Sequence record: NC_047749.1
Source: Escherichia phage DT571/2
DNA length: 64,000 bases
Direction: 5' to 3' (one strand)
Positions 1,404 to 30,935 of the stretch are shown in pieces; the stretch's first letter is position 1, and each line of letters opens with the position of its first letter. A program made the position numbers and the translations under genes. The notes beneath the pieces are model-generated. The model did no database searches. It had not been told where the DNA came from and saw only the letters and a list, made by a program, of their open reading frames with translations.

Positions 1404-3068
1404 TTACGCGAAAAATTTGCCGTTTTTAAAGTCGATTAACGTGCGCTGCCCGTTTGCATATGTAATTACATGCGTTTGCGTCCAGCTTGATGCGCCGACG
1501 TTGTAGCCCATATCGAGGCTGCCCGATACGCCAGCAGTATATACGCCGCCGTAAATGCTGGCGGTATGGGTGTGCCCCGTGTTTAATTTGCCCAACTTTT
1601 TAAATTGCTTCGGATTGCCGCGGCTCCCGTTGATGCCGTTGTGACCGTGTACGCCGCACTCAATGCCTGCAATCTTGAATGATTGATCAGTCGTTAGGAA
1701 TATGGCGTTAAACTCACAGCCTGCAACCTTGCGCAGCGCATAATCCAGCACGTTGAAAGTATCGTCATTTTCTGCAATAGCTCCATAGATCGCGGCGTTG
1801 AGGCGGTGATATAGCTCTGCGTTTGCTGGATCGTCTTTAATGTTAGCGTTGCGATCATCCAGCCAACGGGATAACGCCAGATCGTGGTTTGACTCAACAA
1901 TGATTGTTTGCGAGAAATCGCGCTCCATTGATTCCAATACACGCCCCGTGTCGATAAGATCATCTAAAACCTTATCACGTCCGGCGGCGTACTGTTTTGC
2001 TAGGAATACGCCAGATGCGCGATTGTGGTGGTTGCGTGATGTAAAGTCATGCACATCATGCACGAACTGATATTTAGGTTTAAGAATATCAAGCAAACTA
2101 TTTTCGCCCGCCCATGACGCTTCAGCACACGCCTTATCTAATTTTTCAGCGTGCACGTCGCCATACTGTAAACCTAAAACATGCCCCGATGTTTCATAAC
2201 ATCCGGCGGGAGTGGCGCAAATATTCAAATCATAAAAAACGCCGGTTTCATCCATCGTCTCAAGCTGGCGAACAAAAAATGCCCCGTCCTCGTCAAACTC
2301 GACAATCAGCGCGCCAAAGTTATGTAACGCTTCGGCCTTTTGCCCTGCTTTCTGCTGAATGTAGTTTTTTAGCGTTGCCGCTCCCGTTGAGTACATACGG
2401 CGCACTACTTCACCTTTGAGCGCTGGAACGCTTTCTGCGGTGATTTTAGCTGCTCCAATTGCCAAACCTTCAAGATCAAGCGCTGTTGCAGTCTCAGCGA
2501 ATCCAGAAAGCGGGTAGTCTGCCGTTGGCAAAACATTAATCTCAGCCATGAAAGCAAAGCGGCGACTATTTAAAAACACGTTTTTATTACAGATATATTT
2601 ATCAAAAGCGGAATCATATTTGATCCCGTCCGCACCTTCTCCATTCTGGAATCCTTTTTTGTTATAAATGAACTTGCTAACCAGCAAATCAGCGCCGATA
2701 AATTGGGCGTAATGTTCAAGTGAGGCTAAAAAGTTTTTATGCGGGAACGTGTTGTTCTGGATTGATGTTATAATGAAGCGTTTGCCCTGCTTTACTTCCC
2801 ACTGTTCAACCGTGCTAGAAATAATTCCCGCCGCCTCTGGGCGCTCGTCGTTTTTAACGGCTTTTGATGCTTTCGCCTCTTTTGGTTTCGCTGGTTTGTT
2901 TGCTTCCAGCCAATCACAAATTGCGGTCGAATGTTTTGCCGTATCGTACACCGCTTTTGATATATCGTCGCAGACTTCCAATCTAGTAGCGCGCAGACGT
3001 TTACCGTAAAAATTAAAATCAGCGGCCAGCTTCAGGATAACGGTTTGTTTTTCTGCGGAAATAACCAT
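1404..3068 (-). CDS. A1: pre-early protein A1-like, calcineurin-type metallophosphoesterase (probable nuclease)
   Basis: 554-aa ORF; phosphoesterase motifs GDVHAE, VESNHD, GVHGH, GHTHT; size and position match T5 A1. Confidence 0.8.
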   Translation of the reverse strand: MVISAEKQTVILKLAADFNFYGKRLRATRLEVCDDISKAVYDTAKHSTAICDWLEANKPAKPKEAKASKAVKNDERPEAAGIISSTVEQWEVKQGKRFIITSIQNNTFPHKNFLASLEHYAQFIGADLLVSKFIYNKKGFQNGEGADGIKYDSAFDKYICNKNVFLNSRRFAFMAEINVLPTADYPLSGFAETATALDLEGLAIGAAKITAESVPALKGEVVRRMYSTGAATLKNYIQQKAGQKAEALHNFGALIVEFDEDGAFFVRQLETMDETGVFYDLNICATPAGCYETSGHVLGLQYGDVHAEKLDKACAEASWAGENSLLDILKPKYQFVHDVHDFTSRNHHNRASGVFLAKQYAAGRDKVLDDLIDTGRVLESMERDFSQTIIVESNHDLALSRWLDDRNANIKDDPANAELYHRLNAAIYGAIAENDDTFNVLDYALRKVAGCEFNAIFLTTDQSFKIAGIECGVHGHNGINGSRGNPKQFKKLGKLNTGHTHTASIYGGVYTAGVSGSLDMGYNVGASSWTQTHVITYANGQRTLIDFKNGKFFA

Positions 3069-5220: not shown

Positions 5221-5260
5221 CTCATTAGCCAACTAACTATCTCATTAGCCAACTAACTAT
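5221..5260. repeat. 20-bp direct repeat x2 (CTCATTAGCCAACTAACTAT)
   Basis: two identical adjacent copies. Confidence 0.9.
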
Positions 5261-5270
5261 TTCATAAGTT

Positions 5271-5450
5271 ATAATAACTATAAAAATAATCACCGTTAAA
5301 ATAATCACTATAAAAATAATCACCATTAAAATAATAACTATAGAAATAATCACCATTATAATAATCACCATTAAAATAATCACTATAAAAATAATCACCA
5401 TTAAAATAATCACTATAAAAATAATCACCATTATTATAATCACTATAAGA
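5271..5450. repeat. 15-bp tandem repeat, about 12 copies (ATAATCACYRTTAAA)
   Basis: read directly; the 68-aa ORF 5237..5443 is its translation artefact. Confidence 0.9.
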
Positions 5451-24421: not shown

Positions 24422-24528
24422 TAGATCTCCCCGATGTTAGAATTTGGTAGTTAGTAGTGGGTTTGAGTCGCTGTAGTCGTTCCGAGTGCCTTAGATCGCT
24501 GGGCTATCGAAGCATTAGAATATCTACA

Positions 24529-24979: not shown

Positions 24980-25057
24980 TGGCAGGGGATATTGGATTTG
25001 AACCAATGATCTCGACTTCAAATGCCGTAGCTTTAGGCCAAGCTAAGCTAATCCCCA
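24980..25057 (-). tRNA. tRNA-Gln (anticodon UUG), U1-U72 mismatch
   Basis: hand fold: CCA, G73, T-arm ATTGG/TTCAAAT/CCAAT, anticodon loop ATTTGAA. Confidence 0.55.
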
Positions 25058-25938: not shown

Positions 25939-26033
25939 TGGAGGTAGGTAAGGGGATCGAACCCTTACACCGTATCACTACGATCAACCGATTTCAAGTC
26001 GGAGTCCAGCGCCAGCCGTTGGATTGACCTACC
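25939..26033 (-). tRNA. tRNA-Ser (anticodon UGA), class II
   Basis: hand fold: perfect acceptor and T-arm, anticodon loop CTTGAAA, long variable arm. Confidence 0.7.
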
Positions 26034-26045
26034 ATATAAATTGTT

Positions 26046-26136
26046 TGGCGGAAGAGGAGAGATTTGAACTCTCAAGCCGTTTTACCAGTCAGCCACTTTC
26101 CAAGCGGTTTTCGTCGCCAATTCGATTTGCTCTTCC
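26046..26136 (-). tRNA. tRNA-Ser (anticodon GGA), class II
   Basis: hand fold: perfect acceptor GGAAGAG/CTCTTCC, T-arm GAGAG/TTCAAAT/CTCTC, loop TTGGAAA. Confidence 0.65.
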
Positions 26137-26772: not shown

Positions 26773-26836
26773 TGGTCAGTGCGGCAGGACTCGAACCTGC
26801 GACCTGAAGCATCCAAGGCTCCCACGCTACGCACTG
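26773..26836 (-). tRNA. atypical 64-nt tRNA-like element (no room for a D-arm)
   Basis: CCA, perfect 7-bp acceptor CAGTGCG/CGCACTG and perfect T-arm GCAGG/TTCGAGT/CCTGC, only 29 nt between them. Confidence 0.4.
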
Positions 26837-26844
26837 AAAGTTTA

Positions 26845-27192
26845 TTAGTTTAACCGTAAAGTATTATCTACTTCACCATTAATTGTTCGGCATTCCTCTG
26901 GGATTGTCGGAGTGGCCTTGTATTCCCACCACTCAGCACCGTCATATTCCCCACGTTCTAGCCAAGTTCCATCGGCAAACCATACATTACCATAAAGTAA
27001 TTGTCCACCGTATCCAGAATCATATTCAAAGTCTAGGTTATTAAGAAAATCCTCAATATCTTCTTCTGTATAACCTAAAGGTAATACCCAGACTTTTTTA
27101 TCCCCATAATACCCGAATTCTATTTTAATACACTTAACTTTAGAATTGGTATTTTTTAAGGCGAGTAATAGCTCTTCTTTAGCATTACGCAT
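26845..27192 (-). CDS. hypothetical protein
   Basis: 115-aa ORF. Confidence 0.55.
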   Translation of the reverse strand: MRNAKEELLLALKNTNSKVKCIKIEFGYYGDKKVWVLPLGYTEEDIEDFLNNLDFEYDSGYGGQLLYGNVWFADGTWLERGEYDGAEWWEYKATPTIPEECRTINGEVDNTLRLN

Positions 27193-27217
27193 AGTATATT
27201 CTCATACTGAGTTAATT

Positions 27218-27291
27218 TGGCGCGACCGATGGGATTTGAACCCACATTCCCCGTGACAGGGGAGTACCATTACCAAGCCAGCCCCTGTCGC
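27218..27291 (-). tRNA. tRNA-Asp (anticodon GUC)
   Basis: hand fold: CCA, T-arm, anticodon loop CTGTCAC. Confidence 0.7.
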
Positions 27292-27300
27292 ATAATTCAT

Positions 27301-27486
27301 TTACTCATATTTGAGTTTTTCAATAGCTGCATTAAGTTCTTTTAGAGCTTCACGACGTTCTACCTGACCTTGAAGTTCTTCAAGAAGTTCCGCTTTCAGA
27401 GTCTCAATAATTTTACCACGAACCTTGATATTATTAATCAGATTATCACGATCAGCTTCTAGTCGAGCAATTGCATGAGTTGTCAT
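27301..27486 (-). CDS. small coiled-coil protein
   Basis: 61-aa ORF. Confidence 0.45.
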   Translation of the reverse strand: MTTHAIARLEADRDNLINNIKVRGKIIETLKAELLEELQGQVERREALKELNAAIEKLKYE

Positions 27487-27513
27487 ATCTATTTCCTCAG
27501 TTATTAATGAAAA

Positions 27514-27586
27514 TGGTATCTGTGGCTGAATTCGATGTCAGCAATGATAGCTGGTTGGCTACCGGTTTACTTAACTCTACACAGAA
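27514..27586 (-). tRNA. tRNA-like element with non-canonical loops (possible pseudo-tRNA)
   Basis: CCA plus 6/7 acceptor pairing, but T-loop and anticodon loop are 8 nt. Confidence 0.3.
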
Positions 27587-27588
27587 TT

Positions 27589-27666
27589 TGGCGGGCCGTG
27601 TAGGATTCGAACCACCAACCCCGAAGGGCACGGATTTACAGACCGCTGCAATAGCCATTCTGCCAA
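27589..27666 (-). tRNA. tRNA-like element with Tyr-like anticodon loop CTGTAAA (degenerate)
   Basis: CCA, weak T-stem, variable-arm hairpin CCC-TTCG-GGG, no acceptor pairing found. Confidence 0.35.
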
Positions 27667-27750
27667 CGATGTATATTTAAAAGTATTCAAATACTTGTTT
27701 AAACACTTTTAAATATGTTTCCAACTTAGATAACTATTATATCTAGGTTT

Positions 27751-27792
27751 AAGGCACTGAGCAAGTCAGATTTTGAAGAATTTGCTCAGTGC
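27751..27792. other. stable hairpin (11-bp stem GCACTGAGCAA / TTGCTCAGTGC)
   Basis: read directly; lies in leader between promoter at 27868 and tRNAs. Confidence 0.6.
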
Positions 27793-27867
27793 TATATTAG
27801 TTAGTCGAACTTAGGAGTAACAATTAAAGAGAATGGGAGTTCGAAAACTTCATCAATTTATATAACT

Positions 27868-30287: not shown

Positions 30288-30788
30288 TTTAAGTATTTTT
30301 AAGAACTCTCGTAAAAACTCTTAAAAATACAGACGATACCGGGAGAGTCATAAGTCTCACTCATTAAGTATTTCAAGACAAAATACAGTAACGTCTATTA
30401 TTTTCCAGTTTAAGTCAAGGTGACTTAGTGGTTATGCCCTGCGGTATACTGAGGACTCGGTTAGGCTAGGGTCATGACTCCCCGCTTTTTGCTGCTACTC
30501 AACAGGAATTATCGCGAATTACCTGTGCTATTGTGCACCATTAGTGGCATCTCTCATGCCAGCATTTCCCACTTTGTGGATAGTTTGAAAAACTACTCCG
30601 ATATGGAGGGAGAACTTCACTATCCTAGAATACCTTCTAAAGTTCTTCTTTAGCCTGGACATAGTTAAATCGTAATAAAACTATTCAGCAGACTGGTTGG
30701 TTAGCCTGGAACCAACTACCGCGTGGTTTAGGCAGTGCGCAACTAACCTCGGAAGCTTTTACGTTAAAAGCACCAGTTATCCAGTTCT

Positions 30789-30860
30789 TACCGATCGTAG
30801 GATTCGAACCTACATCTTCCACCAGTTACGGCTTGATAATACCGTTTATACTAGATCGGC
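30789..30860 (-). tRNA. tRNA, CCA not encoded, anticodon undetermined
   Basis: perfect T-arm GTAGG/TTCGAAT/CCTAC and 7-bp acceptor with one G-U. Confidence 0.5.
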
Positions 30861-30935
30861 AGTGTTACTACATAAGTGATTTCCACACCCCACTATCAAT
30901 AAATTAGGGAAGAATTACTCTCTAATTTATGAATA

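Follow-up and report, generated by a model that had tools for sequence, protein, structure and literature searches.

The question raised by this locus is what two adjacent degenerate tRNA-like elements, explained in the initial annotation as possible tRNA pseudogenes or decoys for tRNA-targeting nucleases, are doing in a 64-kb stretch of phage DNA (hereafter the window, at its full length). Comparison with known genomes revealed that the window is 99.8-100% identical to Escherichia phage DT57C around both elements and 98.8% identical across 10 kb. DT57C is a T5-like phage (Tequintavirus, Demerecviridae), and the next closest phage to the window is Gostya9. Both elements lie inside the phage tRNA cluster, where all tRNA calls are on the minus strand, and they should therefore be read on that strand as well. 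The plus-strand reading was rejected, given its weaker folds (z = -1.7 and +0.4) and the uniform minus-strand orientation of the cluster tRNAs. Two such elements were indeed found where they had been described, but as minus-strand RNAs. It is highly likely that the one lying 5' on this strand (element 2) is a scar of recombination between a tRNA-Tyr and a tRNA-Asn gene, and that its neighbor (element 1) is RNA3, a tRNA-derived and non-decoding structured RNA.

Element 2 is an 84-nt hybrid pseudo-tRNA at 27589..27672 (minus strand), joining the 5' part of a tRNA-Tyr(GUA) to the 3' part of a tRNA-Asn, as evidenced by alignment, a deletion map, and its Rfam score. Its true 5' end is 27672, which replaces the boundary initially drawn at 27666. 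Positions 1-64 of the hybrid (27609..27672, minus strand) are identical at 62 of 64 sites to the 84-nt tRNA-Tyr(GUA) of Shivani, with G1->A and T18->G as the differences, and this Tyr-derived part runs from the 5' strand of the acceptor stem through the D, anticodon, and long variable arms to the 5' strand of the T stem. Positions 60-84 (GGTTCGAATCCTACACGGCCCGCCA; 27589..27613, minus strand) equal the 3' end of the long-variable-arm tRNA-Asn(GUU) found in Shivani (25/25), phage 5, and HildyBeyeler. The crossover is the T-arm GGTTC shared by the two genes (27609..27613), and window positions 27505 to 27613 are 100% identical to many phages with an intact tRNA-Asn.

In its fold, the hybrid retains a long variable arm as well as a D arm and a T loop (UUCGAAU) that are both normal, and its GUA anticodon (27639..27637) occupies the canonical positions 34-36 in the loop CUGUAAA. 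This tyrosine-like loop had been reported initially on a 3-bp stem, but the stem proved to have 4 bp (three Watson-Crick pairs and one G-U) closed by a UxU. The intact tRNA-Tyr of Shivani has the same anticodon stem, so this is a native feature rather than a sign of decay. The acceptor stem, described as lacking pairing altogether, is mostly unpaired but keeps residual pairing at four of seven positions, namely the three innermost Watson-Crick pairs and one G-U, and two of the five T-stem pairs are mismatched. The mismatches in both stems follow from the different genes of origin of their halves: the Tyr-derived 5' acceptor strand ACAUCGU faces the Asn-derived 3' strand ACGGCCC, and the Tyr-derived T strand GGUGG faces the Asn-derived CCUAC. 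The hybrid scored 25.1 bits against the Rfam tRNA model (RF00005, gathering threshold 29 bits), covering only model positions 5-66 and lacking positions 1-4 and 67-71, whereas its intact parents scored 50.2 and 58.4 bits and were both called by ARAGORN, which made no call on the hybrid. Its fold was no better than those of shuffled sequences (z = +0.26). Compared with a canonical or type II tRNA-Tyr, the hybrid thus keeps genuine D, anticodon, and variable arms, but its acceptor and T stems are mismatched and it falls below the family threshold.

The origin of the hybrid could be traced by a BLAST map with collinear flanks, in which window positions 27150-27613 correspond to Shivani 1501-1967 and positions 27585-27854 to Shivani 2767-3036. 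Relative to Shivani, about 800 bp are missing, which held tRNA-Cys and two small ORFs along with the 5' two-thirds of tRNA-Asn on one side and the 3' end of tRNA-Tyr on the other; the deletion size and the length of the microhomology (5-11 nt) are approximate, with Shivani serving as a stand-in for the true parent (2/64 differences in the Tyr part). The counterpart interval in T5 is larger and also holds tRNA-Phe, tRNA-Trp, and tRNA-Glu. The ancestor would have had a Shivani-like order of tRNA-Tyr, two ORFs, tRNA-Cys, long-arm tRNA-Asn, and RNA3, and a deletion of about 800 bp would have joined tRNA-Tyr to tRNA-Asn at the T-arm GGTTC, possibly at GGTTCGAATCC in the true parent. The product would be a Tyr body with its D, GUA anticodon, and long variable arms, completed by Asn sequence in the 3' strands of the T and acceptor stems, in G73, and in the CCA. 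Gostya9 carries an identical copy of the hybrid with the same junction, so the deletion is older than the split of these phages; BLAST found the junction in no further record. The alignments and the deletion map together show that element 2 is the scar of a deletion and not a canonical tRNA. As its acceptor and T-stem halves no longer pair, the hybrid is regarded as a pseudo-tRNA and is presumably non-functional in translation. The hybrid carries no annotation in either DT57C or Gostya9, and no description of it was found.

Upstream of the hybrid, a homolog of the T5 promoter P14a (tRNA-Tyr promoter region) was identified by alignment with the annotated P14a of T5 and phage 5. Its -10 hexamer is a perfect TATAAT (27736..27741, minus strand), but the TG of the extended -10 has been lost in the window. 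Given the retention of this promoter homolog, the hybrid and RNA3 are probably still transcribed from it. In addition, ARAGORN and Rfam called no tRNA-Tyr, tRNA-Asn, or tRNA-Cys gene in the 64-kb window, and these three tRNAs have been lost in the DT57C/Gostya9 lineage, so that the phage of the window is expected to depend on host tRNA-Tyr. It has been reported that PtuAB depletes host tRNA-Tyr and that T5 and SP15 phages losing their tRNA-Tyr cannot infect retron-Eco7 cells (PMC11555353). Owing to the loss of tRNA-Tyr, DT57C-like phages are therefore predicted to be sensitive to retron-Eco7 and related tRNA-Tyr-depleting systems, unless another anti-retron gene compensates. T5-like phages with deletions in their non-essential tRNA region are known, namely T5Mos, T5-123, and T5n/SP15m (PMC11464382, PMC11555353; Glukhov et al. 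2018 cited there), and losing tRNA genes, tRNA-Tyr among them, affects how sensitive such phages are to defence systems. The hybrid is a scar of the same kind, but in this case natural, fixed, and common to Gostya9, with its endpoints within two tRNA genes.

Element 1 occupies 27514..27586 on the minus strand and represents a 73-nt gene for a non-canonical, tRNA-shaped small RNA, with exactly the coordinates of the misc_RNA rna3 (DT57C_s004) of DT57C, annotated as a "putative stable RNA with unknown functions". RNA3 is also annotated in T5 (NC_005859, 33877..33949, "putative tRNA-like RNA"), Salmonella phage 5 ("tRNA-like RNA with unknown functions"), and BF23 (rna3), and element 1 is this same T5-group element, with no difference that would set it apart. 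It is preceded by a 2-nt spacer, AA (27587..27588, minus strand), read from the sequence between the CCA of the upstream pseudo-tRNA and RNA3; the same 2-nt spacing occurs 3' of the intact tRNA-Asn in relatives. On its other side lie a 27-nt conserved leader with the Shine-Dalgarno motif GAGGAAA (27487..27513, minus strand), delimited by alignments, and a co-oriented 61-aa ORF immediately beyond this leader (27301..27486, minus strand), a homolog of T5.068. In the annotated relatives, RNA3 is likewise placed 2 nt 3' of the tRNA-Asn CCA and 27 nt 5' of the ATG of the T5.068-type ORF, and in the window this synteny is kept on the same strand, with the Asn-derived 3' end of the hybrid upstream and the T5.068 homolog downstream.

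RNA3 is far better conserved than its surroundings. The window copy is identical to RNA3 of T5 (73/73) and of phage 5 (100%), whereas the adjoining T5.068-type ORF shares only 56% protein and 63% nucleotide identity with its T5 counterpart. At a minimum identity of 90%, RNA3 was detected in 354 phage records spanning Tequintavirus and Epseptimavirus. When the most divergent RNA3 copies were deliberately brought into the comparison, pairwise identity averaged 0.94 in RNA3, 0.89 in the leader, and 0.73 in the ORF. The upstream tRNA-Asn occurs among relatives as two quite different alleles, and RNA3 is invariant across these and across two very different ORF alleles. Its conservation is similar to that of the ordinary tRNAs of the cluster.

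Read from 27586 to 27514, RNA3 adopts a three-helix, cloverleaf-like fold with a minimum free energy of -17.9 kcal/mol (z = -3.0 against shuffles). The acceptor-like helix has 6 bp (2-7/63-68) and a U1xU69 mismatch and ends in A-CCA; if U1xU69 is taken as a mismatched first pair, the helix has the seven positions of a canonical acceptor, followed by a discriminator A and the CCA, although with 6 bp and a mismatch it falls short of a true 7-bp stem. In the place of the D arm there is an unpaired, A/U-rich stretch of 16 nt without a D stem. The middle stem (24-28/37-41) has 5 bp and an 8-nt loop, CCAACCAG, or alternatively 6 bp and a 6-nt loop, and is separated by a 3-nt linker from a T-like stem (45-49/58-62), which also has 5 bp and an 8-nt loop, CAUCGAAU. 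The CCA, acceptor pairing, and two 8-nt loops initially noted for this element were therefore all recovered. The middle loop contains no U33, and the 7-nt anticodon loop and 7-nt T loop are both absent. Compared with a canonical tRNA (Rfam RF00005), RNA3 has the same arm order, approximate arm lengths, and CCA, but differs by its missing D stem and its 8-nt loops. ARAGORN made no call on RNA3, and a 196-nt search of Rfam returned no family match for it at E<=10. The check by automated tools proposed at the outset thus gave no canonical fold for either element, with ARAGORN silent on both and the Rfam tRNA model below threshold for element 2 and without any hit for element 1.

Variation among RNA3 copies provided further evidence on this fold. 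Across 16 distinct variants, the three helices were 97.7% paired, and the loops and D region were invariant. Four pairs showed compensatory changes, namely 6-64 (UA/CG/UG), 26-39 (UA/CG), 28-37 (GC/AU), and 45-62 (GC/AU/GU), these events coming from few independent lineages; in KookSpook, six of the eight substitutions make up three compensated pairs. The observed values of pairing, compensated pairs, and covariation were not matched by any of 500 column shuffles, pairing dropped to 30-42% in slid-partner controls, and RNAalifold independently predicted the same fold. Single disruptive changes do exist, both in the T-like stem (C62A and G48A) and in the acceptor helix, which is broken in gmork/PMBT26 (G5A and U2C) and in falkor (C63A). 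In gmork/PMBT26, the acceptor helix lacks one or two pairs, and an alternative 5' hairpin (1-4/9-12) is compensated instead, with U2-A11 replaced by C-G. Covariation thus leaves the predicted middle and T-like hairpins well supported and, because of this competing hairpin, the terminal helix only moderately so. Taken together, the comparisons indicate that RNA3 is not decaying but is among the best-conserved stretches of the locus and under purifying selection at the RNA level. Of the two elements initially proposed as tRNA pseudogenes, element 2 accordingly deserves the name, specifically as a Tyr/Asn recombinant left by a deletion, and element 1, conserved with compensatory base-pair changes, does not. 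Two ORFs overlapping the elements (27471..27680 on the plus strand and 27497..27658 on the minus strand) were considered and rejected as coding; both the compensatory pattern and the 1-nt insertion carried by the middle loop of RNA3 in BF23 speak against a protein-coding constraint, and the upstream part of these ORFs is not conserved in T5.

Natural absence of RNA3 was also encountered. In Salmonella phage STG2, the conserved leader begins right after the tRNA-Asn CCA (...GCCCGCCA|ATTTCATTAACAACTGAGGAAATAGATATG), RNA3 being missing exactly from CCA to CCA, and tRNA-Asn, the leader, and the T5.068-type ORF are all kept. In an SP3-like phage, only the last 29 nt of RNA3 remain. Two separate searches returned 354 records for the RNA3 query and 427 for the neighboring ORF, with STG2 as the one confirmed case lacking RNA3. 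The absence of RNA3 from some relatives that keep the downstream ORF implies that it is not essential, and the element is best described from these comparisons as a dispensable cassette. An RNA3 covariance model found no paralogs in the window or at several loci, RNA3 being single-copy in the window. Likewise, a search of IMG/VR with the neighboring protein and a degenerate pattern, together with a metagenome scan, led back to the same T5-like contigs and yielded no new variants of RNA3. A search of the window for targets able to pair with the invariant unpaired parts of RNA3 turned up a single candidate, located in a tandem repeat (5226..5259); it matches at 12/14 positions in the same sense, which is near chance. 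Literature searches found no expression or transcript data for RNA3, and the records label it "putative", unlike RNAs I, III, IV, 2H, and X.

Several explanations for the persistence of RNA3 have to be weighed. That both elements are decaying tRNA pseudogenes, with RNA3 a functionless neutral relic, would fit its failure with ARAGORN and every Rfam family, its 8-nt loops and lack of a D stem, the presence of several other damaged tRNAs in the same phage, and the ability of STG2 to do without it. However, a neutral relic is expected to decay at least as fast as its neighbors, whereas RNA3 is conserved more strongly than any other segment of the locus (100% against T5, compared with 63% for the next ORF), is held at 90% identity or above in 354 genomes of two genera, keeps its stems through compensatory changes, and has invariant loops and D region; this explanation is accordingly considered very unlikely. 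A similarly slight chance is given to a DNA-level effect without RNA function, in which RNA3 would serve to anchor recombination or be targeted by a homing endonuclease. The tRNA region is mosaic, HNH homing endonuclease genes occur nearby in relatives, and the flanking modules swap at the RNA3 borders, all of which such an effect could explain, but double substitutions that preserve pairing are the signature of an RNA rather than of a DNA site, and the ordinary tRNAs of the cluster are conserved to a similar degree. Taken jointly, a DNA-level cause or a neutral relic as the source of the conservation is unlikely, while carrying some weight. RNA3 could instead act in cis, as a processing or "punctuation" signal or a 5'-UTR element that would recruit RNase P or RNase E to part tRNA-Asn from the T5.068 mRNA, or that would set the 5' end or stability of this mRNA. 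An acceptor helix, a T hairpin, and a CCA make up a minimal RNase P substrate, and the modeled RNA3 appears to have all three; it also starts 2 nt past the upstream CCA and ends 27 nt before the next ATG, and the downstream leader with its Shine-Dalgarno motif is conserved too (0.89). STG2, in contrast, lacks RNA3 and still has tRNA-Asn, the leader, and the ORF; RNA3 itself is invariant across two ORF alleles and two tRNA-Asn alleles, and the invariance of its loops and D region exceeds the needs of a processing signal, so that a role in cis seems rather improbable.

The remaining explanations give RNA3 a role in trans. T5-family tRNAs are proven counter-defence factors, with tRNA-Tyr countering the PtuAB of retron-Eco7 (PMC11555353) and tRNA-Lys countering PARIS (PMC11464382). 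RNA3, and perhaps the hybrid, might accordingly be a tRNA-mimic decoy or sponge titrating a host defence nuclease directed at tRNAs, or some other factor that binds them, as its tRNA-like outline, encoded CCA, invariant loops, and location in a strongly transcribed tRNA operon would allow. Against this stand the 8-nt middle loop without U33, unlike any normal anticodon loop, and the lack of detectable mimicry of a host tRNA or similarity to a phage one: a BLAST comparison of RNA3 with 5,426 E. coli genomes returned nothing (a weak test of low power for 73 nt), and its best alignment to 175 distinct phage tRNAs scored 9, no better than shuffled sequences (8.5 +/- 1.7), so that no tRNA ancestor emerged from this comparison. 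Moreover, the hybrid is confined to one lineage and a deletion accounts for it, and nothing suggests that it has been selected. A decoy is thus judged doubtful, its chances being small. A broader proposal is that RNA3 is a trans-acting tRNA mimic binding some tRNA-recognizing protein, which is tentatively put forward here at somewhat less than an even chance. The cassette starts 2 nt past the CCA of the upstream tRNA and ends in its own ACCA, with the acceptor-like helix stacked on the T-like hairpin and the middle hairpin alongside. RNA3 would be co-transcribed with the tRNAs, cut at its 5' end by RNase P, and left with its encoded CCA at the 3' end, and it may then persist as a small tRNA-shaped RNA whose loops are recognized in a sequence-specific manner and which takes no part in decoding; the invariance of these loops suggests such recognition of RNA3 by some partner. 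The most specific form of the mimic proposal, a dedicated D-arm-less and CCA-ended trans-acting RNA whose invariant loops bind or inactivate a host defence nuclease, sensor, or modification enzyme, is a speculative option with a low probability. If true, RNA3 would be an RNA-based anti-defence factor distinct from the known replacement tRNAs.

Stable small RNAs in phage tRNA clusters have precedents, as the species 1 and 2 RNAs of T4 (rnaC and rnaD) are co-transcribed with its tRNA cluster. According to record annotations, the T5 RNAs I, III, IV, 2, 2H, and X are, like RNA3, small structured RNAs in the phage tRNA operon, some of them tRNA-like. RNA3 has no sequence relation to these other T5 and T4 RNAs and differs from them in being only "putative" as a stable RNA. 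Further afield, mascRNA from MALAT1 and the t-elements of plant mitochondria are non-decoding tRNA-like RNAs processed by RNase P. By analogy, RNA3 may follow the same proposed principle of a tRNA-shaped module for tRNA-processing enzymes, but its sequence and host are unrelated.

Part of this picture was already known, namely the annotation of element 1 as RNA3 and the plasticity of the T5 tRNA region, and the pair is real but largely explained: what appeared as two odd tRNAs is one annotated element and one deletion scar, which guards against over-interpretation. The present analysis adds, in a modest way, the hybrid origin of element 2, a quantitative account of RNA-level selection on RNA3, and a natural relative without RNA3, STG2. 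For RNA3 in particular, the new results are the measurement of a conservation island, the covariation support, the competing 5' hairpin, and the exact absence in STG2. RNA3 has been "putative" in annotations for about 20 years, and it is as constrained as the surrounding real tRNAs and shows compensatory changes. This constraint, the compensatory changes, and the availability of STG2 for comparison make RNA3 a reasonable candidate for a functional small RNA of these phages.

Other changes in the tRNA genes of the phage were also noticed, as the Asp, Pro, and Ile/Met tRNA genes are damaged too. In addition, a BLAST map against Shivani, T5, and HildyBeyeler located a second small deletion upstream of the tRNA-Tyr promoter region, in which the T5.072 homolog was lost; its junction, at 27848..27854, is a 7-nt CTTCATC microhomology.

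The tRNA-Asp(GUC) on the minus strand of the window (27218..27291) was found to be damaged relative to its counterparts in phages T5, Shivani, and HildyBeyeler, carrying a C6-to-A substitution in the acceptor stem and lacking 3 nt on the 3' side of the anticodon stem. ARAGORN made no call for this gene, and its Rfam score (27.9 bits) fell below the tRNA threshold of 29 bits. Because of the damage to tRNA-Asp and the other cases of damaged tRNAs, it is suggested that the tRNA cluster is undergoing erosion in the lineage of this phage. The counterpart of the same gene is labeled "tRNA-Asp(UGG)" in the record of the closely related phage DT57C. In tRNA-Pro (26776..26836, minus strand), the D arm was 12-13 nt shorter than in DT57C and the anticodon was UGG versus CGG; despite this loss the gene scored 44.6 bits in Rfam, with no call from ARAGORN.

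In addition to the tRNA-Tyr/tRNA-Asn fusion, comparison with the DT57C record revealed a second hybrid pseudo-tRNA at 24445..24513 (minus strand), in which the 5' part of the DT57C tRNA-Ile(GAU) is joined to the 3' part of the DT57C tRNA-Met, following the deletion of 175 bp (join at record positions 24998/25174). The hybrid is without an anticodon loop and retains the T arm, but with several additional substitutions there, and neither ARAGORN nor Rfam called it. A further deletion junction, at 27848..27854, marks the loss of approximately 230 bp, including the homolog of T5.072, a gene present in T5, Shivani, and HildyBeyeler; the junction displays a 7-nt microhomology (CTTCATC).

At 30788..30861 (minus strand), ARAGORN called a "tRNA-Ser" whose anticodon, ACU, is unusual (39 bits in Rfam); it lies within a region annotated in DT57C as a 636-nt stable "RNAX". 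Two type-II tRNAs on the minus strand, annotated in DT57C as tRNA-Ser(UGA) (25943..26033) and tRNA-Ser(GGA) (26050..26136), were both passed over by ARAGORN, and their sole Rfam match was the tRNA-Sec model, at 38.3 and 19.7 bits, respectively, both below its 47-bit threshold.

On the plus strand, a non-coding stretch (5221..5400) contains CTCATTAGCCAACTAACTAT twice in tandem, followed by many repeats of the AATAATCACC type. The first repeat shares 12 of 14 bases with the middle-loop region (TAGCCAACCAGCTA) of RNA3, the tRNA-shaped non-canonical RNA; just 2 of 100 shuffles gave an equal number of hits, but the two repeat copies are not independent, and thus the likeness is probably due to chance.

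Many T5-like phages harbor a tRNA-Asn(GUU) of 83-86 nt with a long type-II-like variable arm (e.g., L002 1943..2025, L004 2085..2170, and L005 2685..2767, in the relatives' own coordinates), whereas that of T5 itself is ordinary (78 nt). The long-arm form looks like a tRNA-Tyr paralog with a switched anticodon. Its D arm and anticodon stem are near those of the Shivani-type tRNA-Tyr, and it carries G73. According to the annotation of the phage 5 record, the long-arm tRNA-Asn functions as a suppressor once its anticodon is swapped.
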